The notes: generated by a model from the letters alone, not told the origin. A stretch of DNA of 16,000 bases from Candidatus Sororendozoicomonas aggregata (GCF_031528575.1 NZ_JAVLSP010000034.1:21096-37095), one strand, 5' to 3'; counted from the stretch's first letter, positions 3 to 16,000 are shown. Numbers and translations are program-made.

Positions 3-536
3 AGCCTGGAAGCCTATTGCTCGCCATCCTATCACCCAATGAGTCAGGGAATCGCATTAGAAGGCATGCGGTTGATCAAAGAGAATTTGCCGATCGTTTA
101 TGAGACCCCTTCCAATATGGAAGCCCGCGGCCATATGATGACCGCCGCTGCCATGGGGGCTACAGCTTTCCAAAAAGGTCTCGGAGCCATGCACGCCCTC
201 TCTCACCCTGTCAGCGCGGTATTTAACACCCCCCACGGCATGACCAATGCCGTCGTCATGCCTGCCGTACTGAGGTTCAACCGCCCAGCCATCGAAGAAA
301 GTATCACGTCAGCTGCCTCTTATATGGGAATAGATGGCGGCTTCGATGGTTTCTACGATCACATGATCGCACTCTCTGAAACACTAAATGTCCCGAAATC
401 ACTTGAAGAACTCGGCGCAAACCCGGGCAAAATTGAATTACTCGCAAAAATGGCTATTAAAGACCCAAGCGCTGGAGGAAACCCGGTTGAGTTGACCTTA
501 GAGGCCGCGATTAATCTTTATAGTGAGTGTTTTTAA
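3..536 (+). CDS. Iron-containing (group III) alcohol dehydrogenase family protein, C-terminal part. The 5' end lies upstream of the window.
   Basis: The frame of ORF 39..536 stays open back to nt 3 (SLEAYCSPSYHP precedes the listed Met), so the gene starts upstream. It contains the metal-site region GAMHALSHPVS...HGMTNAVVMPAVLRFN typical of Fe-ADH (PF00465-type) enzymes. Stop TAA at 534..536. Confidence 0.85.
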   Translation, partial: SLEAYCSPSYHPMSQGIALEGMRLIKENLPIVYETPSNMEARGHMMTAAAMGATAFQKGLGAMHALSHPVSAVFNTPHGMTNAVVMPAVLRFNRPAIEESITSAASYMGIDGGFDGFYDHMIALSETLNVPKSLEELGANPGKIELLAKMAIKDPSAGGNPVELTLEAAINLYSECF

Positions 537-586
537 ACCCTGATCAAGCCGTGTCGTCAATGTGGAAGAATGGAAAGTACCGTGGC

Positions 587-700
587 TCACTTACTTACCA
601 AGGCAAGTCGTTGCCCAAAGAAGCGACAACATTGACCTGGCTTCTCCACACCATCGCAAAAGTGGGTGGCTGGCGTGGCTCAGTAAGCGGGGTAAACACA
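587..700 (+). pseudogene. Probable remnant of the C-terminus of an IS4/Tn5(IS50)-like transposase
   Basis: The frame of ORF 527..775 reads KSLPKEATTLTWLLHTIAKVGGWRGS. As I recall it, the conserved C-terminal block of Tn5/IS4-family transposases is ...GSLQWAYMAIARLGGFMDS..., which this resembles. Only about 35 to 60 codons are present. There is no catalytic DDE region, and two frames are open here, as expected for decayed sequence. Confidence 0.35.
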
Positions 701-781
701 GCCCAGAGAATTTTAACATCAGACTCAAAAAGGGAGGTGCTACACTTTTATTATATATTCGTAGCAATTCGGTAAAGAGTG

Positions 782-1367: not shown

Positions 1368-1680
1368 CCCTATTTGTTCACTACATGACGCCCATGCTTT
1401 TTAGAAAACCGAAAAACAGGCGGCTCTTCCGTGGGTTCTGCTTATCACAAAAAATCATGAACCGTTTATTATAAAAAGCGATGTATGGTTTGAAATGAAT
1501 GGGCTAAAAAAATGGTGGATTTCAGTTATTAATAGTTACGGTAGTCTCATCATTTGATGTTGTTGGCTATATCATTTTTTATTCTATCCATCTCATTATT
1601 GGAAGCTATTTATCTGGTTTTAATTGACGGTTTAATCAAAAAAATAGTCTATTTTTAGACAGTTACGCGTTTCAAATGAG
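1368..1680 (+). promoter_or_regulatory. AT-rich upstream region of LDLa gene 1, duplicated upstream of gene 2, with a candidate -35 TTGACG at 1624..1629
   Basis: About 310 bp of non-coding sequence is conserved almost base for base with 5046..5364, including TTGACGGTTTAATCAAAAAAATAGTCTATTTTTAG. No convincing -10 hexamer or strong Shine-Dalgarno is visible, only GAG at 1678..1680. Confidence 0.3.
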
Positions 1681-4600
1681 ATGTCAGTTATGTATTTACT
1701 CTTTTTTTATGCTTGTTTCATGGCGCTGTCAGTGTCAGTAAGCCCAACAATTTATGCTGATCCTGATTCCAATCAACCTTTTGGCCCGACCAACGTTATA
1801 CTTAATCACCCTAATAATTTGAGCAATCATCTGGAGGAGGCAAAAGACAATTTAACAGACGATTTTCATAAGTACTGTCGAACCATGCTATTGGCAGAAG
1901 CAGAAGGCTTTACCGATAAGGAAAACTTTTTGAATAGCGAAAGGAAGTCACCTCGTTACTATTTATTCAAGTCGTTATGTATCCGCCATTTCTGGGCTCC
2001 TACCTTCGATAGTTTTATGCGGTACATTGTACACGGAGACCCTGTTCAGGTTTCAGAACTCCCCTTGTTGAAAACCATGATAAAACTGTGTGAGGCACAC
2101 CCCGGAATGACTATTGGTGAGATGATCAGCGAGGTAGAAAACCAGCAGCACGAAGATGAGGGTATCAACACTTTTTTAAGCTATAAAAACAACAGTCTCG
2201 AAAAGCATCAACAAGCGCTGGATGAGATCGTCGGCTTCTATCAGTCCGATAACGACGGGGAATACGAGGGTATCAACCCTGTTTCAGACGACAAAGCCAA
2301 CAGTATCCACAAGCATCAACAAGCGTTGGCTGAAGTCGGCTACGATGAGCTTGAGAACAGCGGGGAATCCTGTGGGGAGTCCTGGTTTGACGGCTGGTTT
2401 GAACACACAAGATTCTCTGGTGTGATAAGCAAACTGACAAACCTGGCTTCTTCCTTTGTCTCCCCTTTGAGCTTGCTAGTGACGGGGCTGCCCTGTGGCG
2501 TGTCAGGTTTTGATTGTAGAAGTGGGGAAACAGTACCGGATAATCGGGTATGTGATGGCAAATGGCACTGCTCTGACGGTAGTGATGAGGCCACCTTCTT
2601 TACGATAGATTTCGAGACCCCCTGTTTTCTATGTAGAGATGATAGTAAGCTGATTCAGAGTAAACTGCTCTGCGACGGCAAGAGACAGTGCGAGGACGGC
2701 AGCGATGAGTCAACCAGCGATGACTATCCCGTCTGTTTCCAATGTAGCGAGGGTGAGCTGATTCGCCGTAATCACAAGATCTGCGATGGCAAAAACGACT
2801 GCGGCAATGGCAGTGATGAGCGTGTCAGCGGCGAGAATCCGTCCTGTCTTCGATGTACAAATGGCGCTATGAGACCTATTGCATTTAAATGCGATGGCTA
2901 CAGAGACTGCCGTAGTGGCAGTGATGAGCTGGCGTGTAATAAGCCTGATACTACTAGCCCCACTGGTAGCCCTACTATTGGCAACTCCTATGTTTGTGAA
3001 AACGGGAAAACCATCCCGGCAGGACAGCGCTGTAATGGAAATCACGAATGTGCTGACGGGAGTGATGAGCAAGCATCAAGGTGCTGTGAAAATCCAGAGC
3101 AGTGGGTTAACGGTACTACCGGGCTGTGTGTTAAAAAAGGCGACCCCGGCACCAGATTCTATGTCTGTCAGAACGGGCATATCATCAATAAAACATTGCA
3201 CTGCGATGGCAATGACAACTGCGGTGACCGGAGTGATGAGAAAGTAGCAACGTGCTGTGAAAATCCAGAGCAGTGGGTTAACGGTGCTACCGGGCTGTGT
3301 GTTAAAAAAGGCGACCCCGGCACCAGATTCTATGCCTGTCAGAACGGGCATATTATGAATAAAACATTGCACTGCGATGGCGATGACGGCTGCGGTGACG
3401 GGAGTGATGAGCGTCCATCAGATTGCTGTGGAAGCAGTGTTCACTCTGTCACCGGGGAGTGTAATAAAAAAGGTGACCCTGACACCAAATTCTTTGTCTG
3501 TGAAAACGGGGAGCGAACCATTCGGGATGACTATCGCTGTAATAATGATTTGAATTGCCCTGACGGCAGTGATGAGCGTACCAACGGCACACGCCCTCCC
3601 TGTTTTCGTTGTGAAAATGGTCGGGTGATTCACAAGTCTGTTTTCATCCAATGCGATGGGGCTAACAACTGCGGTGACTGGAGTGATGAGAGCACCAGCG
3701 GTGAGAACCCTCCCTGTTTTCGTTGTCAAAACGATAAGGTGATTAACCGTGATAACTATCTCTGTGATGGTAGTAACCATTGCGATGACTGGAGTGATGA
3801 ACAGGCCGCGGACTGCTGTAAAAATCCGCGGCGGTGGGTTAACGGTACCACCGGGTTGTGTCATAAAAAGGGAACACGGGGCCACAAATTCTTTGTTTGT
3901 GAAAAAGGGCATACCATCCGAGGAATATGGCATTGTGATACTGGTGACGATTGCGGTGACAGGAGTGATGAAAAGACCAGGGACTGCTGTGTAAATGGGG
4001 AGCTGGGGGTTGATCGTACCACCGGACTGTGTAACAAAATAAGACACCCTGGCGCCAAACTTTATGCTTGCGAGGACGGGCGAACCGTCGCCGGAGATAA
4101 GCGCTGTGACGGTACTATAAACTGCCCTGACGGCAGCGATGAGCGTACCAACGGCACATACCCCCCGTGTTTTAAGTGCAACGATGGTCGATTAGCGTTC
4201 GCTGAAATACGCTGTAACGGTGTAATAAACTGCCCTGACGGCGGTGATGAGCGTACCAACGGCACACACCCCCCGTGTTTTAAGTGCAACGATGGTCAGG
4301 TGAAGCCCACTGAGATGCGCTGTGACGGGAGTATAAACTGCGCTGACGGCAGTGATGAGTTGGCGTGCAATAAATTCAATATTACTCATATTGGTAATAC
4401 GACGAATTTTGGTAATACGACGAATTTTGGTAATACGACGAATTTTGGTAATCATTCTTCCATGGGCAATTCTACTGATCTTACCGACTCTCCTGATACG
4501 CCTGATACTAATAATGCTGTTTTAAGCGCGCTTCTATCGACCCCAGTCCTGGTGGCGATAGGCGCAGGGGCAGGCCTGGCCTATTATGCTGTAATGCTGG

Positions 4601-4725
4601 TCATTGAAAAAGATAAAATAAAGTCAGAAGGTAAGTTTAAATGGCTGGTTTCTCCTATCACCACCCCCTATAAATACCTGAGGCGTCGTTGTGGCCACCA
4701 AGAAGTTGAAGCTGAGGAAGTGTAG
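1681..4725 (+). CDS. LDL-receptor class A (LDLa) repeat protein with 14 modules, an N-terminal signal peptide and a C-terminal TM anchor (paralogue 1)
   Basis: 1014-aa ORF. Signal-like N-terminus MSVMYLLFFYACFMALSVSVSPTIYA|D. There are 14 occurrences of C-[DN]-G-x3-C-x-D-x-[SG]-D-E (for example CDGKRQCEDGSDE, CDGNDNCGDRSDE). TM helix AVLSALLSTPVLVAIGAGAGLAYYAVMLVI at 4516..4605, followed by a basic tail. The start could be ATG 1681 or ATG 1690. Confidence 0.85.
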   Translation: MSVMYLLFFYACFMALSVSVSPTIYADPDSNQPFGPTNVILNHPNNLSNHLEEAKDNLTDDFHKYCRTMLLAEAEGFTDKENFLNSERKSPRYYLFKSLCIRHFWAPTFDSFMRYIVHGDPVQVSELPLLKTMIKLCEAHPGMTIGEMISEVENQQHEDEGINTFLSYKNNSLEKHQQALDEIVGFYQSDNDGEYEGINPVSDDKANSIHKHQQALAEVGYDELENSGESCGESWFDGWFEHTRFSGVISKLTNLASSFVSPLSLLVTGLPCGVSGFDCRSGETVPDNRVCDGKWHCSDGSDEATFFTIDFETPCFLCRDDSKLIQSKLLCDGKRQCEDGSDESTSDDYPVCFQCSEGELIRRNHKICDGKNDCGNGSDERVSGENPSCLRCTNGAMRPIAFKCDGYRDCRSGSDELACNKPDTTSPTGSPTIGNSYVCENGKTIPAGQRCNGNHECADGSDEQASRCCENPEQWVNGTTGLCVKKGDPGTRFYVCQNGHIINKTLHCDGNDNCGDRSDEKVATCCENPEQWVNGATGLCVKKGDPGTRFYACQNGHIMNKTLHCDGDDGCGDGSDERPSDCCGSSVHSVTGECNKKGDPDTKFFVCENGERTIRDDYRCNNDLNCPDGSDERTNGTRPPCFRCENGRVIHKSVFIQCDGANNCGDWSDESTSGENPPCFRCQNDKVINRDNYLCDGSNHCDDWSDEQAADCCKNPRRWVNGTTGLCHKKGTRGHKFFVCEKGHTIRGIWHCDTGDDCGDRSDEKTRDCCVNGELGVDRTTGLCNKIRHPGAKLYACEDGRTVAGDKRCDGTINCPDGSDERTNGTYPPCFKCNDGRLAFAEIRCNGVINCPDGGDERTNGTHPPCFKCNDGQVKPTEMRCDGSINCADGSDELACNKFNITHIGNTTNFGNTTNFGNTTNFGNHSSMGNSTDLTDSPDTPDTNNAVLSALLSTPVLVAIGAGAGLAYYAVMLVIEKDKIKSEGKFKWLVSPITTPYKYLRRRCGHQEVEAEEV
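3082..3423 (+). repeat. Near-identical 171-bp (57-aa) in-frame tandem duplication, two units
   Basis: Units 3082..3252 and 3253..3423 both begin TGCTGTGAAAATCCAGAGCAGTGGGTTAACGG. They differ at only a handful of positions over the first ~125 nt. A third, diverged unit starts at 3424. Confidence 0.9.
4123..4338 (+). repeat. 108-bp (36-aa) in-frame tandem duplication, two units
   Basis: Units 4123..4230 and 4231..4338 both begin TGCCCTGACGGC(A/G)G(C/T)GATGAGCGTACCAACGGCACA(T/C)ACCCCCCGTGTTTTAAGTGCAACGATGGTC. Paralogue 2 has a single unit, starting at 8431. Confidence 0.9.
4393..4452 (+). repeat. 18-bp in-frame tandem repeat GGTAATACGACGAATTTT (GNTTNF), three units plus a partial unit
   Basis: Perfect units at 4393..4410, 4411..4428 and 4429..4446, followed by GGTAAT. 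Paralogue 2 has one diverged unit at 8593..8610. Confidence 0.95.
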
Positions 4726-4851: not shown

Positions 4852-4935
4852 TTAGCCCGGATATTTCATAAACTGCCCTTAGAGCCGCAAGGAGCAAGCA
4901 AGGCCAGGAGCATGTTTATGAAATATCCAGGTTAG
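4852..4935 (+). mobile_element. Type-2 MITE-like palindromic element (84 bp), flanked by TTAG
   Basis: Termini are GCCCGGATATTTCATAAAC ... GTTTATGAAATATCCAGG(T). It is nearly identical to the reverse complement of 12244..12327. It lies exactly at the end of duplication unit 1. Confidence 0.7.
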
Positions 4936-4989: not shown

Positions 4990-5058
4990 GCCCGTAGCGA
5001 GGACCGCGAGAAATGGCGGATAAAAAGTCGCTTTTGTGAGGAGAATAGCGGGACTATT
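4990..5058 (+). mobile_element. Truncated internal fragment of the type-1 MITE
   Basis: GCCCGTAGCGAGGACCGCGAGAAATGGCGGATAAAAAGTCGCTTTTGTGAGGAGAATAGCGGGACTATT aligns with the left-central part of the copies at 8887, 12080 and (reverse complement) 10737. The terminal inverted repeats are absent. Confidence 0.5.
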
Positions 5059-5364
5059 GTTCATCACATGACGCCCCATGCTTTTTAGAAAACCAAAAAA
5101 CAGGCGGCTCTTCCATGGGGTCTGTTTATCACAAAAAATCATGAACCGTTTATTATAAAAAGTGAGGATATGGTTTGAAACGAATGGGCTAAAAAAATGG
5201 CTGATTTCAGTTCGTAATAACCACGGGAGTCTCATCATTTAATGTTGTTGGCTATATCATTTTTCATTCTATCTATCTCATTATTGGAAGCTATTTATCT
5301 GTTTTCAATTGACGGTTAAATCAAAAAATAGTCTATTTTTAGGCAGTTACGCGCTTCAAGTGAG
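5046..5364 (+). promoter_or_regulatory. Duplicated upstream region of LDLa gene 2, with a candidate -35 TTGACG at 5309..5314
   Basis: Near-identical to 1368..1680. Conservation of this much non-coding sequence between paralogues suggests a shared promoter or leader. Confidence 0.3.
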
Positions 5365-8300
5365 ATGTCAGTTATGTATTTACTCTTTTTTTATGTTTTT
5401 TTCATGGCGCTGTCAGCGTCAGTAAGCCCAACAATTTATGCTGATTCTGATTCCAATCAACCTTTTGGCCCGACCAACGTTATACTTAATCACCCTAATA
5501 ATTTAAGCAATCATCTGGAAGAGGCAAAAGACAATTTAACAGACGATTTTCATAAGTACTGTCGAACCATGCTATTGGCAGAAGCAGAAGGCTTTACCGA
5601 TAAGGAAGACTTTTTGAATAGCGAAAGGAAGTCACCTCGTTACTATTTATTCAAGGCGTTATGTATCCGCCATTTCTGGGCCCCTAACCTTGATAGTTTT
5701 ATGCGGTACATTGTACACGGAGACCCTGTTCAGGTTTCAAAACTCCCCTTGTTGAAAACCATGATAAAACTGTGTGAGGCACACCCCGGAATGACTATTG
5801 GTGAGATGATCAGCGAGGTAGAAAACCAGCAGCACGAAGATGAGGGTATCAACACTTTTTTAAGCTATAAAAACAACAGTCTCGAAAAGCATCAACAAGC
5901 GCTGGATGAGATCGTCGGCTTCTATCAGTCCGATAACGACGGGGAATACGAGGGTATCAACCCTGTTTCAGACGACAAAGCCAATTGTATTAAAGAGCAT
6001 CAACAAGCGTTGGCTGAAGTCGGCTACGATGAGCTTGAGAACAGCGGGGAATCCTGTGGAGATTCCTGGTTTGACGGTTGGTTCAAACAAACAAAACTCT
6101 CTGGTGTGATAAGTACACTGACAAACCTGGCTTCTTCCGTTGTCTCCCCTTTTAGCTTGCTGGCGATGGGTCTGCCCTGTGATGTATCAGGTTTTGTTTG
6201 TGACAATGGGGAAGTAGTGCCAGATTATTGGGCGGGGTCTCTACGGTGCAATAAAAAGAGAGAGTGCGAAGACGGTAGTGATGAGCGCTCCAGCGGTTTT
6301 CGCCCCCCCTGTTTTCAATGTAACAGCGATGGTAAGCTAATTCAGAGTGAACGGCTCTGCAATGGCAAGAGAGAGTGCGATGACGGTAGCGATGAGGCAA
6401 CCAGCGGTGTCAACCCCCTCTGTTTCCACTGTGGCAAAGAGGGTGAGCTGATTCGCAATAATCTCCAGATCTGCGATAGCAGAAACCACTGCAGCAATGG
6501 CGGTGATGAGCGTACCAGCGGCAAGAATCCTCCCTGTTTTCGATGTAAAAATGGTGATTGGATTATTCGTAAAGAAATGCGCTGTAACGGTATTAAAAAC
6601 TGCGATGACCACAGTGATGAACAGGCCAATAACTGCTGTGAAAATTGGACGTTGCAGAGCAAAGGTAACAGACTGTGTAATAAAAAAGGAGACCCTGGTA
6701 CCAAATTATATGTCTGTCAAAATGGACAAACCATCAAGAAAACATGGCGCTGCGATGGCCAAGTTGATTGCGTCGACGGCAGTGATGAGCGCGCCAGCGG
6801 TGCGACCGCCCCCTGTTTTCGTTGTAAACAGGGTAATCCAGTGCTCAGTGAAATGCGCTGTAACGGTGTTAAAGACTGCGATTACGCCAGTGATGAGCGG
6901 GCTGGAGACTGCTGTGAAAATTGGACGTTGCAGAGCAACGGTAACAGATTGTGTCATAAAAAAGGAGACCCCGGTACCAAATTCTATGTCTGTCAAAATG
7001 GACAAACCATCAAAGCAGCATGGCGCTGCGATGGCGTAGTTCATTGCATCGGCGTCATTCCCAGTGATGAACGCGTCAGCGGTGCCAACCCTGCCTGTTT
7101 TCGTTGTCAAAACGCTCGGATAATTAAAAATAACCACCTGATCTGCAATGGCGAAGACGACTGCGGCGACAATAGTGATGAGAGCGACTGTTTTCATTGT
7201 AAAAATGGTGATCGGGTTCGTAGTGAAATGCGCTGCGATGACCACCAGGACTGCGCTGATAACAGTGATGAGCTGCTGTGTCATTCCTTTGACTGCTCAA
7301 ACGGACAGGAAACCATCGAGATAGAATATTACTGTGATGGAATGGGCCACTGTAGTGACGGGAGTGATGAACAAGCGCAAAACTGCTGTGAAAACCCGGA
7401 GCTATTGGTTAACGGTACCACGGGTCTGTGTATTAAAAAAGGACACCCCGACATCACATTATTTGTCTGTCAAAACAGGAAAACCATCCGGCCAGAATTT
7501 CACTGTAATGGCTATACAGAATGCAGTGACATGAGTGATGAGCAACCACAAGACTGCTGTGAAAATCCGGAGCGGTGGGTTAAGGGCACTACCGGGCTGT
7601 GTAATAAAAAAGGAAACCCCGGCGCGGAATTATATGTTTGTCAAAACGGGCGAACCACCCGGCCAGAATTTCACTGTAATGGCTATAACGATTGCGGTGA
7701 TGGAAGTGATGAGCAAGCATCAAAATGCTGTGTAAATCCGGGGCGGTGGATTTGGGGCACCACCGGGGTGTGTGATAAAAAAGGAGACCCTGGTACGAAA
7801 TTCTATGTTTGTCAAAATGGGCAAACCATCAACGAAGCATGGCGCTGCAATCGCATTAACGAGTGCGGTGATGGGAGTGATGAACGCATCAGCGGTCACA
7901 ACCCTCCCTGTTTTCTTTGTCAAAATGGTCGGTTCATTCACAACTTTTTTGGCATGACCTGCAATGGTAGGAACAACTGCGGTGACTGGAGTGATGAGAG
8001 CGCCAGCGGTGACAACGCTCCTTGTTTTCGTTGTCAAAATGGTACGGTGATTAGCCGTAGTGGCATGTTCTGCAATGGCGTTAACAATTGCGATGACTGG
8101 AGTGATGAGCAGGCCGCGGACTGCTGTCAAAATCCGCGGCGGTGGGTTAACGGTACCACCGGGTGGTGTCATAAAAAGGGAACACGGGGCCAGAAACTCT
8201 TTGTTTGTGAAAAAGGGCATACCATCCGAGAATTATGGCATTGTGATACTTTTGACGATTGCGGTGGCAGGAGTGATGAAAAGACTGAAGACTGCTGTGT

Positions 8301-8889
8301 CAATGGGGAGCTGGGGGTTGATCGTACCACCAGACTGTGTGACAAAATAAGACACCCTGGCGCTAAACTTTATGCTTGCGAGGACGGGCGAACCGTCGCG
8401 GGAGATAAGCGCTGTGACGGTAGTATAAACTGCCTTGACGGCAGCGATGAGCGTACCAACGGCACATATCCCCCGTGTTTTAAGTGCGACAATGGCCAGG
8501 TGAAGCCCACTGAGATGCGCTGTGACGGTTTTATCAACTGCGCTGACGGCAGTGATGAGCTGGCGTGCAATAAATTCAATATTACTCATACTGGCAATAC
8601 AACGAATTTTGGTAATCATTCTTTCATGGGCAATTATACGGATATTAACGACTCTCCTGATACGCCTGATACTAATAATGCTGTCTTAAGCGCGCTGCTA
8701 TCGACCCCAGTCCTGGTGGCGATAGGCGCAGGGGCAGGCCTGGCCTATTATGCTGTGATGTTGGTCATTGAAAGAGATAAAATAAAGTCAGAAGGTAAGT
8801 TGAAATGGCTGGTTTCTCCTATCATCGCCCCCTATAAATACCTGTTGCGTCGTTGTGGCTGCCAAGAAGTTGAAGCTGATGAAGTGTAG
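5365..8889 (+). CDS. LDL-receptor class A (LDLa) repeat protein with 18 modules, an N-terminal signal peptide and a C-terminal TM anchor (paralogue 2)
   Basis: 1174-aa ORF. The first ~270 aa and the last ~250 aa are very similar to paralogue 1. There are 18 C-[DN]-x-x3-C-x-D-x-[SG]-D-E type motifs, one of them degenerate (CDGVVHCIGVIPSDE). TM helix at 8680..8769. The stop TAG 8887..8889 coincides with the first bases of a MITE. Confidence 0.85.
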   Translation: MSVMYLLFFYVFFMALSASVSPTIYADSDSNQPFGPTNVILNHPNNLSNHLEEAKDNLTDDFHKYCRTMLLAEAEGFTDKEDFLNSERKSPRYYLFKALCIRHFWAPNLDSFMRYIVHGDPVQVSKLPLLKTMIKLCEAHPGMTIGEMISEVENQQHEDEGINTFLSYKNNSLEKHQQALDEIVGFYQSDNDGEYEGINPVSDDKANCIKEHQQALAEVGYDELENSGESCGDSWFDGWFKQTKLSGVISTLTNLASSVVSPFSLLAMGLPCDVSGFVCDNGEVVPDYWAGSLRCNKKRECEDGSDERSSGFRPPCFQCNSDGKLIQSERLCNGKRECDDGSDEATSGVNPLCFHCGKEGELIRNNLQICDSRNHCSNGGDERTSGKNPPCFRCKNGDWIIRKEMRCNGIKNCDDHSDEQANNCCENWTLQSKGNRLCNKKGDPGTKLYVCQNGQTIKKTWRCDGQVDCVDGSDERASGATAPCFRCKQGNPVLSEMRCNGVKDCDYASDERAGDCCENWTLQSNGNRLCHKKGDPGTKFYVCQNGQTIKAAWRCDGVVHCIGVIPSDERVSGANPACFRCQNARIIKNNHLICNGEDDCGDNSDESDCFHCKNGDRVRSEMRCDDHQDCADNSDELLCHSFDCSNGQETIEIEYYCDGMGHCSDGSDEQAQNCCENPELLVNGTTGLCIKKGHPDITLFVCQNRKTIRPEFHCNGYTECSDMSDEQPQDCCENPERWVKGTTGLCNKKGNPGAELYVCQNGRTTRPEFHCNGYNDCGDGSDEQASKCCVNPGRWIWGTTGVCDKKGDPGTKFYVCQNGQTINEAWRCNRINECGDGSDERISGHNPPCFLCQNGRFIHNFFGMTCNGRNNCGDWSDESASGDNAPCFRCQNGTVISRSGMFCNGVNNCDDWSDEQAADCCQNPRRWVNGTTGWCHKKGTRGQKLFVCEKGHTIRELWHCDTFDDCGGRSDEKTEDCCVNGELGVDRTTRLCDKIRHPGAKLYACEDGRTVAGDKRCDGSINCLDGSDERTNGTYPPCFKCDNGQVKPTEMRCDGFINCADGSDELACNKFNITHTGNTTNFGNHSFMGNYTDINDSPDTPDTNNAVLSALLSTPVLVAIGAGAGLAYYAVMLVIERDKIKSEGKLKWLVSPIIAPYKYLLRRCGCQEVEADEV
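6178..8568 (+). repeat. In-frame array of 18 LDLa-like modules
   Basis: Same module grammar as 2494..4368. There are 7 CC-linker (long) modules here against 5 in paralogue 1. Confidence 0.85.
6634..7188 (+). repeat. Two-module super-repeat of about 276 bp (92 to 93 aa), two units
   Basis: Units start at 6634 and 6910 with TGCTGTGAAAATTGGACGTTGCAGAGCAA(A/C)GGTAACAGA. The first ~130 nt are nearly identical (CCENWTLQS.GNRLC.KKGDPGTK.YVCQNGQTIK..WRCDG). The remainder has diverged. Confidence 0.8.
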
Positions 8890-9051
8890 GGGCCTGTCCG
8901 AGAACAGCGCCCGTAGGAGGATTGCCAGAAATTGAGGATAAAATTTCTGCTTCTGAGGAGAGCAGCGAGGCTATTTGATGAAGAAGCAGGAGTTTTTAGA
9001 CCAATTTATCGCAACCGCAGTGGGGCAGTCTATTCTCGGTCAGGCTGCTAG
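8887..9051 (+). mobile_element. Type-1 MITE-like element (165 bp), copy A
   Basis: TAG-GGGCCTGTCCGAGAACAG ... CTATTCTCGGTCAGGCTGC-TAG, with imperfect terminal inverted repeats flanked by TAG. It has no coding capacity. It is absent from the equivalent position after paralogue 1, where the stop TAG is followed directly by CCAATTAT (compare TCAATGAT after this copy). Confidence 0.75.
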
Positions 9052-9354
9052 TCAATGATGGGCTGTAGTGAAAGTCTATCGTCGTTTAATTATAAGCACT
9101 ACTTGCCAGGGCATCAAATGTTGATGGTGTTCTGGTAACGGCCTGAAAAACGCCGCGCACCTTACCATAATGACTGCACGTCACTGGAGGTTTTGGTGCC
9201 GCTGATACGATCAGGTCGCGTTTTACCCTGCTATGACCTTAACAACAAATAGCGGCAAAAATAGCGGCAAAAAAACTGTTTATCGGGGCTTGTTATCACC
9301 TGCTATCAGTGAAATAGTGTGGGTTGTTTTTCCTTCTCTGGTAAGCTCCCTTTC

Positions 9355-10683
9355 ATGTTTTCTCACTTCCCCCTGAACAAGCGCTTGTTAAAGGCTCTTG
9401 ACGCGCTTTCATTGACAACCCCAACACCTGTCCAGCAGCAGGCCATTCCGTTCATACTGGCCGGTAAGGATATGCTGGTGGGAGCAGAAACTGGCAGTGG
9501 TAAGACAGCGGCATTTTTACTGCCTATGTTGCACCGCTTCCATGAAACCCCTTCGCCGCGATCAGTCACACGCGCGCTGGTGCTGGTGCCTACCCGTGAA
9601 CTGGCCCGGCAAGTGCTCAGACAGTGTGAAGCATTGGCTCGCTATACCCTTATAAAAGCAACAGTTATCATCGGTGGAGACAGCTTCAAGTACCAGGCTG
9701 CCAGCCTGCGAAAAAACCCAGACATTGTGATTGCCACACCGGGACGTCTTGCGGAGCATGTGGGGCGCCGTACCATTGACCTTGGCGATCTTGAGGTCCT
9801 CGTGCTTGATGAAGCTGACCGGATGCTGGATATGGGCTTTAGGGACGATGTGCTATTGATAGCGGGGCGTAGTCGCCTTGAACGCCAAACCCTCTTGTTT
9901 TCCGCAACAATGAGACAAAAGGGTCTGCGTGATGTCATTACGGCAGTGTTAAATGAGCCAGAAGAAATCAGGCTTAATGATACGCGCGGCACCCATGAAA
10001 AAATCAAGCAGCAAATTATTCTGGCCGATGACCTGAAGCACAAAGAAAAGCTATTGGCGGCCCTGCTCAGGGCTGAGATTGGTGAAAAAGTGGTCGTATT
10101 TACCAATACCCGTCTACAGGCAGATAAACTCGGGCGTTGGTTGCGTTATCACAAGCACAAAGTGGGAGTTCTCCATGGCGATATGACCCAGGAGGAGCGC
10201 AATCAGGTGATTCACTTTTTCCGGGAAGGTCGGATGACAGTGTTGGTGGCTACAGATCTAGCTGCCCGGGGTCTGGATGTGAAAGGGGTTACGCTGGTGG
10301 TGAATCTCGATATGGCGCGCGGTGGTGATGACTATGTCCACCGCATTGGCCGAACGGGCAGGGCAGGGGAGCAAGGATTGGCAGTCACCTTTATCAGTCC
10401 CTCTGAGTGGAACCTGATGGTCAGCATTGAGCGCTACCTGGGTGCAACCTTTGAACGGCGCGTCATTAAGGGTTTGGAAGGTCATTACAAGGGCCCTAAA
10501 AAGCTGAAAGCTTCAGGCAAAGCAGCTGGCCGTAAAAAGAAACTGACCGGAAAAAAGAAGGCAGAGTCTGCTGGCAAATTGAAAAACCGTGATAAGAAAA
10601 GTATTGGAAAACGGCGCAAGCCCACAAAATTAGAGGCAGGATCTATGCTTGACGTGGGGTTTGAGCCTTTAAAGAAAAGATAG
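9355..10683 (+). CDS. srmB: ATP-dependent DEAD-box RNA helicase, SrmB-like
   Basis: Motifs present: Q motif TPTPVQQQAIP, I AETGSGKT, Ia PTRELA, TPGRL, II DEAD, III SAT, V ARGLD, VI HRIGRTGRAG. It is colinear by eye with E. coli SrmB, including DDLKHK (DDLEHK) and the basic tail ...KSIGKRRKP (...KNIGKRRKP). ATG 9355 (MFSHFPLNKRLLKAL) fits the SrmB N-terminus better than the listed GTG 9319. Confidence 0.85.
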   Translation: MFSHFPLNKRLLKALDALSLTTPTPVQQQAIPFILAGKDMLVGAETGSGKTAAFLLPMLHRFHETPSPRSVTRALVLVPTRELARQVLRQCEALARYTLIKATVIIGGDSFKYQAASLRKNPDIVIATPGRLAEHVGRRTIDLGDLEVLVLDEADRMLDMGFRDDVLLIAGRSRLERQTLLFSATMRQKGLRDVITAVLNEPEEIRLNDTRGTHEKIKQQIILADDLKHKEKLLAALLRAEIGEKVVVFTNTRLQADKLGRWLRYHKHKVGVLHGDMTQEERNQVIHFFREGRMTVLVATDLAARGLDVKGVTLVVNLDMARGGDDYVHRIGRTGRAGEQGLAVTFISPSEWNLMVSIERYLGATFERRVIKGLEGHYKGPKKLKASGKAAGRKKKLTGKKKAESAGKLKNRDKKSIGKRRKPTKLEAGSMLDVGFEPLKKR

Positions 10684-10736: not shown

Positions 10737-10904
10737 CTAGGAGCCTGTCCGAGAATAGACTGCCCTACTGCGGTGGCAGCAAATTGGTCTAAAAAGTCGG
10801 AAATTTTTAGCAAATAGAACCACTATTCACTAAAAATTTCCGACTTTTTATCCTCAATTTTCTGCCATCCTCGCTACGGGCGCTATTCTCGGACAGCCTC
10901 CTAG
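10737..10904 (-). mobile_element. Type-1 MITE-like element (168 bp), copy B, inverted relative to copies A and C
   Basis: CTAG-GAGCCTGTCCGAGAATAG ... CTATTCTCGGACAGCCTC-CTAG. The interior holds a 20-bp inverted repeat, AAAAAGTCGGAAATTTTTAG / CTAAAAATTTCCGACTTTTT. Its reverse complement aligns with copies A and C. Confidence 0.75.
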
Positions 10905-11004: not shown

Positions 11005-11499
11005 CTATAACATTGATTTAACGAGGTTCTTTCGACTAAATAACGAGGTAATCACGATAGCCAGCAGGTGGATACCGATGAAGTAGAACAGACTATTGAC
11101 CAATAAGCTGTGCCATTCATAGACACCCTGTTCAAGTCCAAAATCGGTGTCCTGAAGCCAGCCAGTAAAAGCGCAAAGTAACAACATTGTCCACATGAAC
11201 CAGACAGCCATAGCCCCCAACGGGTTATGACCGTGGGGTTGGTAATTGCCTTCTTTCAGCTCCTGAAGGTGATGCTCAACACCCTTGATAGAAAAGCAAA
11301 TATCTCGAAGTCGGGCAGGCGTCTTGGCAAAGGTCATACCATAGAGCAGGCGCAAGCAAACCAGTAAAAGAATCCCCCAGCCAGCATAGGTATGATACTG
11401 GCTTCCTCCTCCAAACAGGAACTGATTGCTAAAAAAAAGCACGACTACTGACCAGTGAATCAGCTTGACAACGCCAGGCCAACGGAATGGTTCAGACAT
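11005..11499 (-). CDS. Cytochrome b561-family (PF01292-like) di-haem membrane protein
   Basis: Four hydrophobic helices carry the conserved His pattern (IHWSVV, YHTYAGW, EWHSLL, GIHLLA). The preferred start is ATG 11499 (MSEPFRWPG...), which overlaps the upstream stop as ATGTCTGA. The listed ORF start 11532 would overlap cybC by 41 nt. Confidence 0.7.
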   Translation of the reverse strand: MSEPFRWPGVVKLIHWSVVVLFFSNQFLFGGGSQYHTYAGWGILLLVCLRLLYGMTFAKTPARLRDICFSIKGVEHHLQELKEGNYQPHGHNPLGAMAVWFMWTMLLLCAFTGWLQDTDFGLEQGVYEWHSLLVNSLFYFIGIHLLAIVITSLFSRKNLVKSML

Positions 11500-11926
11500 C
11501 GAATTTGCCGTGGTATTGTTTCTTGATATCATTGAGCGCTTTCATTCTATTTTTAGCAAGATCGAGATCACCCGCGTTAATGGCGTCCTGAACTGATGAC
11601 AGGCCCGTCAGTAGCTCGCTAACACCTGTCTGGAATGCTTCAGGATCTTCAGAGTACCCCGCTTTTTTTGCTTTTTCAGCATAGGCATGAAATTCATCTA
11701 CGTAGCCCTGCAGCTCATCCAGTGTTTTTGCAGAAATAGAGCGCTTAAAGTTAAACCCCATTGTTTTCATTGCTGCGCTCAACGGCTTACTTCCGCCTTC
11801 CTTTTTTATTTCTTCAGCCTGCATGCTATCGCTAGCTGTTGGTGCGCCGTTGACAATATAGGCGGTGCTTAAAACCACTACTGACAGCGCCACGGGAATA
11901 AGGACTGCTTTTAAGTTAAATTGCAT
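11492..11926 (-). CDS. cybC: Soluble periplasmic cytochrome b562 family protein
   Basis: Signal peptide MQFNLKAVLIPVALSVVVLSTAYIVNGA. Four-helix-bundle-like sequence with an N-proximal Met (AAMKTMGFNFK) and the C-terminal motif KKQYHGKF, comparable to E. coli b562 RNAYHQKY (Met/His haem ligands). Confidence 0.7.
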   Translation of the reverse strand: MQFNLKAVLIPVALSVVVLSTAYIVNGAPTASDSMQAEEIKKEGGSKPLSAAMKTMGFNFKRSISAKTLDELQGYVDEFHAYAEKAKKAGYSEDPEAFQTGVSELLTGLSSVQDAINAGDLDLAKNRMKALNDIKKQYHGKFDV

Positions 11927-12079: not shown

Positions 12080-12247
12080 CTAGGAGCCTGACCGAGAATA
12101 GCGCCCTTAGCGAGGGTTGCGCGAAATTGAGGATAAAAATTTCTGTTTATGAGGAGAATAGTGGGGCTATTTGATGGAGAAGCAGGAATTTTTAGATCCA
12201 TTTATCGCAACCGCAGTAGGGCAGTCTACTCTCGGACAGGCTCCTAG
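12080..12247 (+). mobile_element. Type-1 MITE-like element (168 bp), copy C
   Basis: CTAG-GAGCCTGACCGAGAATAG ... CTACTCTCGGACAGGCTC-CTAG. It is colinear with copy A. Confidence 0.75.
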
Positions 12248-12327
12248 CCCGGATATTTCATAAACATGCTCCTGGCCTTGCTTGCTCCTTGCGGCTCTAA
12301 GGGCGGTTTATGAAATATCCGGGCTAG
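12244..12327 (-). mobile_element. Type-2 MITE-like element (84 bp), second copy, sharing its flanking CTAG with type-1 copy C
   Basis: CTAG-CCCGGATATTTCATAAAC ... GTTTATGAAATATCCGGG-CTAG. Its reverse complement is nearly identical to 4852..4935. Confidence 0.7.
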
Positions 12328-13358: not shown

Positions 13359-13901
13359 TTACTTCTTCTTTTTCGGGGCAATCACCATGATGAGCTGACG
13401 GCCTTCCATTTTAGGGAACTGTTCCACAGTACCGACATCAGTCAGGTCATCTTGAACCCGTTTCATCAGTGCCATGCCCAGCTCCTGGTGAGCCATCTCG
13501 CGACCACGGTAGCGAAGGGAAACCTTCGCCTTGTTGCCCTCAGTCAGGAAACGTATCAGGTTGCGCAGTTTGACCTGATAATCTCCATCTTCAGTGCCCG
13601 GGCGAAACTTCACTTCTTTCACCTGGGTTTGAACCTGTTTTTTCTTTGCCGCTGTTTTCTGTTTCTTGGCTTCGTACTGGTGCTTGCCAAAGTCCAGGAT
13701 CTTACAGACGGGCGGTTCGCTGGTTGCGTTAATCTCAACCAAATCCAGCCCTGCTTCCTGGGCCATCTCCAGCGCGACGCGTAAATCCACCACGCCAACC
13801 TGATCACCCTCAACACCAATCAAGCGGACTTCTTTGGCGCGAATATTTTCATTGATCGGCGCTTTTTGATGACGACGATCACGGAAGCTGTTACGTCTGA
13901 T
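13359..13901 (-). CDS. infC: Translation initiation factor IF-3, with a probable non-AUG (AUC) start
   Basis: ...[23 protein letters not shown]...[45 protein letters not shown]... is colinear with E. coli IF3. In-frame ATC at 13901 lies 8 nt after AGGAG (13914..13910) and gives a 180-aa product, the E. coli length. An alternative ATG at 13928 gives 189 aa. The listed start 13976 is unlikely. Confidence 0.9.
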
Positions 13902-14026
13902 AGGGATATCTCCTGTATAATCAACCATAAGCAAGACGACTTGTTGAACAATAACGATAAAGCCGTCGTACCACAAGCAAGCATCAGCGAAAGATCAAAA
14001 AAAGATCAGCGAATGCTACTGTTTTT

Positions 14027-14061
14027 GTCTTTTCTGTACCTGTGTATAGCACAGAAAAGAC
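14027..14061 (-). other. Perfect 11-bp-stem hairpin 14 nt downstream of the thrS stop
   Basis: GTCTTTTCTGT-(13 nt)-ACAGAAAAGAC. On the thrS strand it is followed by an A-rich rather than a T-rich run, so it is not a canonical intrinsic terminator. Confidence 0.35.
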
Positions 14062-14074
14062 CGTGTTTTCCGCC

Positions 14075-16000
14075 TCAAGGTCTATGACAACCTTTTTTAC
14101 TGACATCGGCCTTGAGCATGTCAATAAAAGCCTGTATTGACATCACCCCCTTGTCTTCGCCTGTTCGGGTTCGTACCGCGACGTTACCATTTTGAGACTC
14201 TTTGTCGCCAACGATGATCAGGTAAGGGGTCTTCATTAAGGTATGTTCGCGGATTTTAAAGCCGATCTTCTCGTTTCTCAAGTCTGCTTTGGCTCTAAAT
14301 CCGTTTTCTGATAAAGATTTTTGCAATTGCAGGGCGTATTCACCCTGACGGTCGGTAATATTCAGAATCGACACCTGCGTGGGGGCTAACCATGCGGGCA
14401 TCGCTCCTTCAAAGTGTTCAATGAGAATACCGATAAACCGCTCAAAAGAGCCAAGAATCGCCCGGTGAAGCATAACAGGCGTTTTGCGCCCGCCGGTTTC
14501 ATCCACATACTCAGCGCCTAAACGTCCGGGCATGGAAAAATCCACCTGTATGGTACCACATTGCCAAACCCGACCGATACAGTCTTTCAGGGAGAACTCT
14601 ATTTTCGGGCCATAGAAGGCACCTTCACCGGGCAGTTCCTCCCAGGGCAGCCCTTGAGTGTCCAGTGCTTTTGCCAGGGATTTCTCCGCTTTGTCCCAGA
14701 TTTCATCTGACCCCACACGCTGTTCAGGGCGCGTTGACAGTTTATACATCAGGCTAGCGCGATCAAAGCCCATGTCATCATAGACTTCATGGAGAAAATC
14801 AATAAAATCAGCCACTTCCTGCTGAATCTGATCTTCTGTCACAAAGATATGGGCGTCATCCTGAGTAAAGCCCCGCACGCGCATAATCCCATGCAAAGCA
14901 CCTGAAGGCTCGTTGCGGTGACAGGAACCAAACTCTGCCAGACGCAGCGGCAAGTCACGGTAGCTTTTCAGCCCCTGATTAAACACCTGCACATGACACG
15001 GGCAGTTCATGGGCTTCACCGCCATGTCTTTGTTTTCAGAATGGGTGGTGAACATGTCATCTTTGAACTTGTCCCAATGCCCGGATTTTTCCCACAATGT
15101 CCGCTCCACCAGCTGGGGCGTTTTGATTTCCCGGTAGCCATGGGTAATCTGCTTACGGCGCATGTACTGCTCCAGCTCCTGGTAAATCGCCCAGCCGTCA
15201 GGGTGCCAGAATACCATGCCTGGCGCTTCTTCCTGCATATGGAACAGGTCAAGCTTTTTACCGAGTTTTCGGTGGTCACGTTTTTCAGCTTCTTCTAGGC
15301 GGAGCAGGTAGGATTTCAGCGCCTTTTTATCTTCCCAGGCAGTGCCATAAATGCGGGTCAGCATTTCGTTATTGGCATCACCCCGCCAGTACGCACCGGC
15401 AACACGCATCAGCTTAAAAGCCTTCAACTTGCCCGTGGAAGGGACATGGGGACCACGGCACAAGTCCATCCAGTCTCCCTGGCGGTACACCGAGATCTCT
15501 TCTGATGCAGGCAGGTCATTAATGATCTCAACCTTATACGTTTCACCCATAGCCTTAAAAGCGTCTACCGCTTCTTCACGGGTCATCACCAAACGATCTA
15601 TCGGGAGGTCTTGCTTCGCCAGCTCCCCCATACGTTTTTCAATTTTGGTCAGGTCTTCTGGCGTAAACGGGCGCTCGTAAGCAAAGTCGTAGTAGAATCC
15701 GTTGTCGATAACAGGGCCAATGGTAACCTGTGCGCCAGGGTACAAATCCTGCGCCGCCATAGCTAACAAGTGCGCCGTGGAGTGACGGATCACTTCGACC
15801 CCCTCTTCATCACGCGCGGTAATAATTGAGAGTTTCGCGTCATCAGATATGCGCGTGCTGGCATCCACCAACTCACCGTTTATACGACCAGCCAATGTTG
15901 CTTTGGCCAAACCCGGACCAATATCCTGAGCAACCTCCATCACGGAAACGGCGTCGGCAAATTCACGTTTGCTGCCATCGGGAAGTGAAATTACAGGCAT
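14075..16000 (-). CDS. thrS: Threonine--tRNA ligase (complete)
   Basis: The 641-aa ORF begins [34 protein letters not shown] (E. coli [34 protein letters not shown]). It carries class II core motifs, for example [30 protein letters not shown]. The start ATG is the last codon of the window (15998..16000). Confidence 0.97.

Follow-up and report, generated by a model that had tools for sequence, protein, structure and literature searches.

Can a bacterial protein built like an animal receptor be meant for a host membrane, or is the likeness confined to its outline? This question is raised by two tandem genes in a 16,000-nucleotide stretch of DNA from Candidatus (Ca.) Sororendozoicomonas aggregata (GCF_031528575.1 NZ_JAVLSP010000034.1:21096-37095), which as a whole is called the window here. 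Gene 1 (1681..4725, plus strand; 1014 amino acids, aa) encodes, in this order, a signal peptide, an orphan N-terminal domain (N-domain), 14 LDL-A modules, a stalk, a single transmembrane (TM) helix and a tail, as read from the open reading frame (ORF) and its translation. Gene 2 (5365..8889, plus strand; 1174 aa) is a tandem paralogue with 18 LDL-A modules. A preliminary description of this DNA had likened the C-terminal part of both proteins to a metazoan type I receptor, with a stalk of potential N-glycosylation sites (N-x-S/T, sequons) and a tail carrying a YxxPhi sorting signal and a PDZ ligand. Comparison with relatives indicates that the type I layout exists and is kept in a small protein family, and that the Y-K-Y-L of the tail, the C-terminal [DE]-E-V and the uncharged N-terminal region (n-region) of the signal peptide are lineage-specific accidents in all appearance, not functional eukaryotic signals.

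A family with a conserved type I layout

An exhaustive HMMER search with a profile of the N-domain returned 17 proteins among 1.84 billion representatives from genomes and metagenomes. The named sources are Ca. Endonucleobacter bathymodioli, Ca. Endonucleobacter from Gigantidas childressi, Ca. Sororendozoicomonas aggregata, Endozoicomonas sp. and an invertebrate metagenome; this tally covers the name-bearing records, leaving aside two ENA records and five proteins not looked up. As far as its members are named, the family thus appears restricted to Endozoicomonadaceae. Ca. Endonucleobacter are intranuclear parasites of deep-sea mussels, and Ca. Sororendozoicomonas aggregata is a coral tissue-aggregate symbiont. 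In most members the N-domain comes first, then LDL-A modules in varying number, and after these a short stalk, one helix and a tail; the proposed layout of a predicted signal peptide and ectodomain, a stalk, a single TM helix and a basic tail held up beyond the two genes for which it had been described.

In Ca. Endonucleobacter, family genes lie in tandem arrays, and one genome has seven adjacent loci. At one locus of Ca. Endonucleobacter bathymodioli (JASXSV010000018.1, L081, 1..10700), at least five family genes, some of them broken, stand in tandem and adjoin tig-clpP-clpX-lon; the copies there use TTG or GTG starts, and one is split in three ORFs (9043..9258, 9265..10038 and 10001..10498) and is probably decaying.

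Databases label the members only as 'hypothetical' or 'LDL receptor domain-containing', and an NCBIfam search with the family proteins gave no match. A search with a tail profile added one protein, P0150, an LDL-A protein of Endonucleobacter; no case of the anchor joined to another ectodomain was seen in this search, a weak tool that returned one family member. A word-index protein search with the N-domain gave no match, failing to recover the orthologue of 60% identity or even the protein of the window itself; its negatives therefore reflect low sensitivity rather than absence of relatives. Scans of a genome collection and of metagenomes with the paralogue alignment found no copy, the patterns used (DDFHKYC, ENQQHED and MTIGEMI) not all being conserved in relatives, and a second metagenome scan with the C-terminal alignment found generic LDL-A modules only, never the helix or the tail. 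Beyond the family, the best whole-protein matches are only about 23-35% identical (E about 1e-20) and come from bacteria, archaea (Marine Group II) and animals alike. In the literature on LDL-A proteins in Endozoicomonadaceae or other symbionts, no paper describing this family was found, and the Endozoicomonadaceae papers covered make no mention of LDL-A; as regards LDL receptor-type proteins, the Endonucleobacter paper and its supplements mention host LRP only (PMC11521996).

The membrane helix is constrained. A Kyte-Doolittle 19-residue mean of at least 1.9 is reached in only two segments per protein, residues 1-26 (peak 1.96) and residues 944-976 (peak 2.11). The latter hydrophobic segment is encoded at 4516..4605 in gene 1 and at 8680..8769 in gene 2 (both plus strand), and both read AVLSALLSTPVLVAIGAGAGLAYYAVMLVI; coordinates and sequences agree with the single TM helix proposed earlier, this being the only strongly hydrophobic stretch besides the N-terminus. 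Between the paralogues the segment has four synonymous and no nonsynonymous differences, and is thus under purifying selection. In comparison with relatives (family alignment A5), the likely TM core is PVLVAIGAGAGLAYYAVMLVI (4543..4605, plus strand); the outer half of the segment is rich in STP and GAGAG. An AlphaFold2 model of the last 193 residues shows one long helix for the membrane segment and a low-confidence structure for the tail. Topology was assigned from hydropathy, small residues at -1 and -3 of the signal peptide and the positive-inside rule.

Most of the ectodomain is the LDL-A array, at 2485..4368 in gene 1 (14 modules by pattern) and 6169..8568 in gene 2 (18 modules by pattern; both plus strand). 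Pfam PF00057, the sole Pfam family in both proteins, matches gene 1 with E=1.5e-74 over 13 stretches and gene 2 with E=5e-90 over 16 stretches (gathering score 24.1 bits). Gene 1 has eight short modules (35-47 aa, typically about 36, with four Cys) and six long ones (55-57 aa, or 55-58 aa over both genes, with six Cys). Six Cys per module is therefore not the rule, as four are found in 8 of 14 modules of gene 1 and in 11 of 18 of gene 2. The short modules follow the pattern …P-P-C-F-x-C-x-N-G…C-D-G-x-x-x-C-x-D-G-S-D-E, and the long ones open with C-C-E-N-P-x-x-W-V-N-G-T-T-G-L-C-x-K-K-G-D-P-G-T. Aligned to LRP2, the short form is missing the canonical first and third Cys positions: Leu, Val or Ile stands at the third, and the conserved Phe is directly preceded by a Cys. 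The acidic Ca2+-binding cluster (C-D-x-x-x-D-C-x-D-x-S-D-E, an approximate pattern) is present in 11 of 14 modules of gene 1 and 17 of 18 of gene 2, and modules with this signature would be expected to bind Ca2+. The last two modules of gene 1 fold at a predicted local distance difference test score (pLDDT) of 82-88 in the AlphaFold2 model of the final 193 residues. The ratio of nonsynonymous to synonymous substitution rates (dN/dS) of the modules between the paralogues is about 0.9.

Short and long modules alternate along both arrays, and the canonical S-D-E-x-x-C cysteine is found only after a module that precedes a stalk or linker. A motif [VI]-N-x-T-T-x-x-C recurs in the first loop of long modules (in the window's genes, P0002, P0125-P0136 and the L081 locus), with N-x-S/T in this loop in 27 of 42 long modules; it may serve as a turn in the structure or as a site of modification.

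The predicted cytoplasmic tail and its motifs

The tail of gene 1 (4606..4722, plus strand) is 39 aa long with nine Lys/Arg, in keeping with the Lys/Arg-rich tail of about 40 aa described before; its net charge is +2, and the positive-inside rule predicts it to be cytoplasmic. The tail of gene 2, from translation and paralogue alignment, is ERDKIKSEGKLKWLVSPIIAPYKYLLRRCGCQEVEADEV (8770..8886, plus strand). Placed in register on an invariant Trp, the family tails read (M-L-V)-K-Y-R-x-K-K-x-x-x-G-x-x-A-W-L-x-S-P-I-T-E-P-V-x-Y-L-R-R-x-C-G-Y-x-x-[VL], followed by unrelated sequence of 0 to about 60 residues, and are 33-97 aa in total length. The family-conserved core is WLVSPITTPYKYLRRRC in gene 1 (4642..4692, plus strand; consensus W-L-x-S-P-I-T-E-P-V-x-Y-L-R-R-x-C); W-L-x-S-P is invariant or close to it, with Trp and Pro the same throughout the family alignment and Ser kept at 90% or more. 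In 16 of 18 tails, the first 12 residues carry a net positive charge.

The eukaryotic-type motifs fare differently. Conservation of the tail between the paralogues had been pointed out, and the two tails are indeed similar, but their likeness is uninformative: they differ by nine nonsynonymous and no synonymous changes, and even the non-coding DNA upstream of the two genes is 90.4% identical. The similarity of the tails therefore reflects recent duplication. Conservation in orthologues had been set beforehand as a test of the motifs, and neither the YxxPhi pattern nor the PDZ ligand is kept there.

The Y-K-Y-L pattern (Y-x-x-[LIVMF]) is present in both paralogue tails, a pattern expected in 36-43% of shuffled tails, and occupies the P-V-x-Y-L positions of the family tail. 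The residues in register are C-K-A-L in the Ca. Sororendozoicomonas orthologue and V-R-Y-L, V-N-Y-L or A-R-Y-L in Ca. Endonucleobacter. Only the window's two genes have the first Tyr, and every other member has C, S, A, V or T in its place; the second Tyr is conserved but stands before L-R-R and does not form a YxxPhi. A further, partly conserved Tyr (C-G-Y-x-x-[VL]) is YxxPhi-like in five relatives and is replaced by His in gene 1 and by Cys in gene 2. As a sorting signal, Y-K-Y-L is thus a pattern that both paralogues have and shuffled tails often yield, on a Tyr that orthologues do not keep.

Similarly, the class III PDZ-ligand pattern x-[DE]-x-Phi is present as E-E-V in gene 1 and D-E-V in gene 2, as had been noted, but elsewhere only in P0123 (E-K-L), and no PDZ class is kept in relatives. 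The C-termini found are EEV, DEV, GEL, EKL, KQL, NQL, HVL, QGL, SNL, SAD, SSY, KEE, PQY, QPW, RGF, DCK, EIN and VSD. The part of the tail that is conserved, W-L-x-S-P-I-T…Y-L-R-R, matches neither the YxxPhi nor the PDZ-ligand class. Short motifs common to recent paralogues look conserved when they are not, and the proposal of eukaryotic sorting and PDZ motifs here is a cautionary case.

The stalk and its sequons

In the frame of the 1681..4725 ORF, 4369..4725 translates to NKFNITHIGNTTNFGNTTNFGNTTNFGNHSSMGNSTDLTDSPDTPDTNNAVLSALLSTPVLVAIGAGAGLAYYAVMLVIEKDKIKSEGKFKWLVSPITTPYKYLRRRCGHQEVEAEEV*. The stalk of gene 1 (4369..4515, plus strand) is 49 aa long, rich in Asn, Thr and Asp, predicted to be disordered, and has six N-x-S/T tripeptides (NIT, NTT three times, NHS and NST), in agreement with the Asn-rich stalk reported after the last module; the stalk of gene 2 (8569..8679, plus strand) is 37 aa long with five. 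The pLDDT of the gene 1 stalk is below 50 in the AlphaFold2 model (model residues 81-142). Tandem Repeats Finder detects a perfect 18-bp tandem repeat encoding GNTTNF three times (4391..4452, plus strand; 3.4 copies, 100% matches, score 124), of which gene 2 has one copy, seen as a gap in the paralogue alignment. Half of the gene 1 sequons are therefore one recently copied unit. Against composition-preserving shuffles, the sequon count has P=0.07 in gene 1 (0.12 with the repeat collapsed) and P=0.016 in gene 2; the counts are only weakly above chance. An acidic residue at -2, as in PglB-type sequons, is found at none of the six sites of gene 1 and at one of the five of gene 2 (D-I-N-D-S), so that the earlier statement that these sites lack it stands for gene 1 and for all but one site of gene 2.

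As a family trait, the sequon-rich stalk was not borne out. Five or more stalk sequons are present in 4 of 17 members (genes 1 and 2, P0002 and P0128, the last with NFTDS five times), and the other 13 have none or one; other long stalks are made of Asn-free repeats, ISTEA six times in P0150 and AFTDA twice in P0135. What the stalks have in common is an acidic Thr/Ser-rich spacer, short or of tandem repeats, not N-x-S/T as such. The abundance of sequons in some of them is a side effect of repeats expanding in a spacer rich in Asn and Thr.

Signal peptide and N-terminal domain

The predicted Sec signal peptide of gene 1 is MSVMYLLFFYACFMALSVSVSPTIYA (1681..1758, plus strand; hydropathy peak 1.96), which aligns with the signal peptides of relatives. 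By inspection, it has the features of a signal peptidase I substrate at its distal end: the hydrophobic core LLFFYACFMAL is followed by small residues, I-Y-A|D, at -3 and -1, and cleavage would occur after I-Y-A, that is, MSVMYLLFFYACFMALSVSVSPTIYA|D. The corresponding site is V-C-A|G in the orthologue, and relatives end in A-H-A|T or IYA|A. The positively charged n-region of such substrates is missing, there being no Lys/Arg before the core in gene 1, gene 2 or P0002 (53-60% identical to the window's proteins). Gene callers begin gene 1 at Met4 (1690), and P0001 begins at MYLLFF; gene 1 has no earlier ATG, GTG or TTG start because of an in-frame TAG at 1645. The Endonucleobacter copies have ordinary bacterial signal peptides with a Lys-rich n-region and an A-H-A|T site, reading MFFDNCKGIKYIKHFLCLPVMLALLVTSLAHA|T, and the uncharged n-region is therefore a trait of the clade of the window and Sororendozoicomonas. 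An N-terminus without Lys/Arg, which the preliminary description had counted as unusual for a bacterial Sec signal, is thus correct for the sequence but is not a feature of the family. A lipoprotein was considered and rejected, as there is no lipobox.

After the TAG, the in-frame codons upstream of both starts (1651..1680 and 5335..5364) read I(ATT)-F-R-Q-L-R-(V/A)-S-(N/S)-E, and resemble the Lys/Arg-containing n-region of relatives. They may be the leftover of a longer n-region; a rare, non-canonical ATT start is less likely.

The orphan N-domain (1759..2508, plus strand; 250 aa) comprises a core of about aa 36-186 and a low-confidence linker. It has no Pfam or NCBIfam match. An AlphaFold2 model is mostly helical with pLDDT 60-97 for model residues 10-160, and a Foldseek search of this model against the PDB gave nothing with E below 1. 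A 36-aa internal duplication (…EGIN…KHQQAL.E[IV]…) lies near the end of the domain, at 2152..2230 and 2260..2338 with 77% DNA identity. The same duplication is present in gene 2 (5836..5914 and 5944..6022), and the Ca. Sororendozoicomonas orthologue has one copy.

A probable inner-membrane-anchored array and its alternatives

These features probably describe an inner-membrane-anchored, periplasm-facing, Ca2+-binding LDL-A array that is lineage-restricted, expands in tandem and bears a family-specific cytoplasmic motif. A periplasmic array anchored in the inner membrane was the first of the two options raised in the preliminary description. The very hydrophobic N-terminal signal peptide would direct export by the Sec pathway and the signal recognition particle (SRP), and the orphan N-domain and the 14-18 LDL-A modules, disulfide-bonded and with their Ca2+-binding signature, would fold in the periplasm. 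A disordered acidic spacer rich in Thr, Ser and Asn and built of short tandem repeats would lead to one stop-transfer helix, which would anchor the protein in the inner membrane with N-out/C-in topology; the acidic stalk and the basic first residues of the tail were counted for this orientation. The basic tail would lie in the bacterial cytoplasm, where K-Y-R-x-K-K … W-L-x-S-P-I-T-E-P-V-x-Y-L-R-R-x-C probably docks a bacterial partner or the membrane surface. By analogy with LDL-A modules elsewhere, the array would most likely bind cationic or Lys-bearing ligands in a Ca2+-dependent manner. The sequences show the layout, how the family is distributed and which residues are kept; from them we infer that the protein is exported, how it is oriented, that it binds Ca2+, where its tail lies and what kind of ligand it takes.

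Several points weigh against this reading. An extended array of 14-18 modules would exceed the width of the periplasm, and it is unclear what ligands it would meet behind the outer membrane. The signal peptide of the window's genes is devoid of Lys/Arg, and no partner of the tail was found. Leu or Val ends 8 of 16 distinct tails (binomial P=0.002, a value that ignores relatedness and was noticed post hoc). Also, the family occurs only in bacteria of animal tissues, cells or nuclei, which speaks more for a role towards the host than for one confined to the periplasm. The tandem arrays, the changing module number, the module dN/dS of about 0.9 and the host-restricted distribution suggest an interface with the host.

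In one alternative, the helix might be a transient anchor that is cut by an intramembrane protease (rhomboid/GlpG-like or rhombosortase-like), after which the shed array would exit by type II secretion or in vesicles, bind host ligands and mimic host proteins of the LDL-receptor family. We regard this as doubtful, though it accounts for several features: the STP and GAGAG of the TM segment are helix-destabilising and small residues recur in relatives (…LVAGAITCATY…, …LGAGAGAVAC…), module number and sequence vary as noted above, and the family is restricted to host-associated Endozoicomonadaceae. The GlyGly-CTERM proteins of Vibrio, whose C-terminal TM anchor is removed before surface display, are a precedent. 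Type II and III secretion systems have been reported for Ca. Sororendozoicomonas (PMC10833068). Against shedding, relatives have neither Gly-Gly nor another sorting signature in common ahead of the helix, no NCBIfam model of a C-terminal sorting domain matches, and a tail of 33-97 aa with a conserved motif differs from the few basic residues that end sortase-type signals. Modification of the stalk N-x-S/T sites by a cytoplasmic HMW1C-type N-glycosyltransferase or a relaxed oligosaccharyltransferase, which would make the stalk stiff and protease-resistant like the sugar-rich stalk of LDLR, is quite unlikely. The five or six sequons in genes 1, 2, P0002 and P0128, counts that exceed shuffles in gene 2 and P0002 (P about 0.016), and the sequon-bearing loop of the long modules speak for it; the 13 stalks with at most one sequon, the Asn-free repeats of other long stalks and the origin of the gene 1 enrichment in a perfect DNA repeat speak against it.

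Two further accounts take the receptor likeness at face value. Capture of an entire host type I receptor gene, with the layout as an inherited leftover, would agree with the overwhelmingly metazoan occurrence of LDL-A modules, with the parallel to LDLR, and with the reported acquisition of apoptosis inhibitors from the host by Ca. Endonucleobacter (PMC11521996). Such a transfer is nonetheless very unlikely: matches outside the family are distant and mix bacterial, archaeal and animal proteins, the composition of both genes is like that of their neighbours, and there is thus no sign of recent animal capture; all name-bearing sources of the 17 N-domain proteins are Endozoicomonadaceae or an invertebrate metagenome; most modules are the four-Cys variant also found in a bacterial HtrA-like protease (P0003); and the signal peptides of relatives are of bacterial type. 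Placement of the protein in a host membrane, with the tail in the host cytosol, Y-K-Y-L as an AP-2 type YxxPhi signal and E-E-V or D-E-V as a class III PDZ ligand, is extremely improbable. In its favour are the presence of both patterns in both paralogues, the overall parallel to metazoan LDL-receptor-family proteins, the C-terminal enrichment of Leu/Val in the family, and the life of relatives within host tissue or nuclei (PMC11521996). The Tyr on which the sorting signal depends is, however, unique to the window's genes, in a pattern that shuffled tails often yield; the residue at -2 is not conserved among family tails, being E, D, G, K, N, H, Q or S in the Leu/Val-ending members, and half of the members end otherwise; the paralogue tails have diverged by nonsynonymous changes only; and neither tail has NPxY. 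We know of no route by which a Sec-exported, disulfide-rich, bitopic inner-membrane protein would enter a host membrane in the required orientation.

A broader variant, in which the family is a bacterial counterpart of a type I receptor whose array reaches host fluid or compartments by shedding or other export and captures ligands of the LDL-receptor family, while the tail is a new bacterial signalling or sorting motif linking this to the cell, seems unlikely at present. The ligands could then be lipoprotein or vitellogenin-like carriers or other cationic host factors, and this reading, if true, could explain both the confinement of the family to bacteria of animal tissue and nuclei and its tandem expansion there. 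Should the array come into contact with host molecules, the family would represent a new type of host-interface protein, with a prokaryotic LDL-A fold of reduced Cys pattern. Few bacterial associates of corals, molluscs and sponges are as widespread as Endozoicomonadaceae, and little is understood of how these interact with their hosts; studies of their eukaryotic-like proteins have concentrated on ankyrin, WD40 and TPR repeats. Being membrane-anchored, made of LDL-receptor modules, lineage-restricted and tandemly expanded, the LDL-A family is set apart from these and is a reasonable target for symbiosis work.

Genomic context of the two genes

Over their first 276 aa the products of genes 1 and 2 are 92% identical, and over the C-terminal alignment 89%; between these parts they differ in module number. 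About 310 bp of upstream non-coding DNA (1370..1680, plus strand) was copied together with gene 1 and recurs at 5054..5364 (the 90.4% identity given above being from blastn; repeat families D7, D11 and D12). The two genes are the product of a recent duplication.

The window is bacterial DNA. An iron-type alcohol dehydrogenase gene is cut off by the left end of the window; ORF and Pfam annotation places a DEAD-box helicase gene at 9319..10683, and the genes of cytochromes b561 and b562 (11005..11926) and infC with thrS (13359..16000) lie on the minus strand. The thrS-infC DNA is about 68% identical to its E. coli counterpart, the ThrS protein is 81% identical to that of 'Oceanospirillales bacterium XeTr1' and 64-75% to those of other marine Gammaproteobacteria, and assembly GCA_031546025.1 carries the same thrS region with 99.9% identity. 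The GC content at third codon positions (GC3) is 0.48-0.49 in genes 1 and 2 and 0.44-0.56 in the neighbours; a recent foreign origin by composition was therefore rejected. Genes on the strand opposite the LDL-A genes were also rejected, as no such ORF has a Pfam match. An Rfam scan of the window gave no match, and promoter and terminator scans of the window gave results at chance level.

Small dispersed repeats flank the duplicated genes. An element of about 83 bp, palindromic and similar to a repetitive extragenic palindrome (REP) or a miniature inverted-repeat transposable element (MITE), CCGGATATTTCATAAAC…GTTTATGAAATATCC, is found at 4853..4935 and, inverted, at 12244..12326 with 96% identity, and is also seen at the end of another locus (L082). 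A second element of about 70 bp lies at 4990..5058, with further copies at 8909..8976, 10841..10881 and 12103..12171. A possible remnant of an insertion sequence lies between the alcohol dehydrogenase gene and gene 1: a small ORF there (527..775) weakly resembles the end of an IS4-family transposase, at a level well short of the cut-off (E=0.0046).

Comparison with known systems

The C-terminal part of the family has the ingredients of the tripartite sorting signals GlyGly-CTERM/rhombosortase, PEP-CTERM/exosortase and LPXTG/sortase, that is, a Ser/Thr-rich linker, a hydrophobic helix and C-terminal basic residues on a secreted protein. Unlike these, it has no conserved motif before the helix, and its long tail carries a motif of its own. 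NCBIfam models of C-terminal sorting domains (GlyGly-CTERM, PEP-CTERM and similar) did not match at E up to 0.1, and the anchor is not a sorting signal of the GlyGly-CTERM or PEP-CTERM type.

Prokaryotic LDL-A proteins are more varied than is usually assumed. The HtrA-like serine protease P0003, with six modules, has the same short form (C-F-x-C-x-N-G-x-x-[IV]-x5-C-D-G-x-x-D-C-G-D-G-S-D-E). Marine Group II archaeal proteins of about 1400 aa (P0004, P0013, P0059 and similar ones; Ca. Poseidonia, Thermoplasmatota) combine LDL-A modules with a glucosidase II beta (PRKCSH)-like domain. These other prokaryotic LDL-A proteins have different partner domains, and neither the N-domain nor the long modules of 57 aa nor the W-L-x-S-P-I-T tail is present in them.

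The metazoan LDL-receptor family (LDLR, VLDLR and LRP2/megalin) shares with the window's proteins tandem PF00057 modules with the C-D-G-x-x-D-C-x-D-G-S-D-E acidic cluster, a Ser/Thr-rich juxtamembrane stalk, a single TM helix and a short cytoplasmic tail, and the best solved relatives of the modules are those of LRP2 (E=6e-49). In contrast to that family, the window's proteins have no EGF module or YWTD propeller, PF00057 being their only Pfam match, and no NPxY; they have an orphan N-domain, a bacterial chromosomal setting and, in gene 1, four Cys in 8 of 14 modules; and identity to animal proteins is only about 23-35%. The window's proteins thus resemble the metazoan family in layout without being members of it.

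A parallel in biology is given by the eukaryotic-like repeat proteins of symbionts (ankyrin, WD40, TPR and Sel1 proteins of Endozoicomonas and sponge symbionts), which likewise bring a eukaryote-typical domain into host-associated Endozoicomonadaceae and, like the LDL-A family, have undergone lineage-specific expansion (PMC12491435; PMC10833068). Most of those proteins are soluble and presumed to act as effectors, whereas the LDL-A proteins are predicted to be Sec-targeted and membrane-anchored. The LDL-A family belongs with these eukaryotic-like symbiont repeat proteins, as a membrane-anchored, lineage-specific variant.

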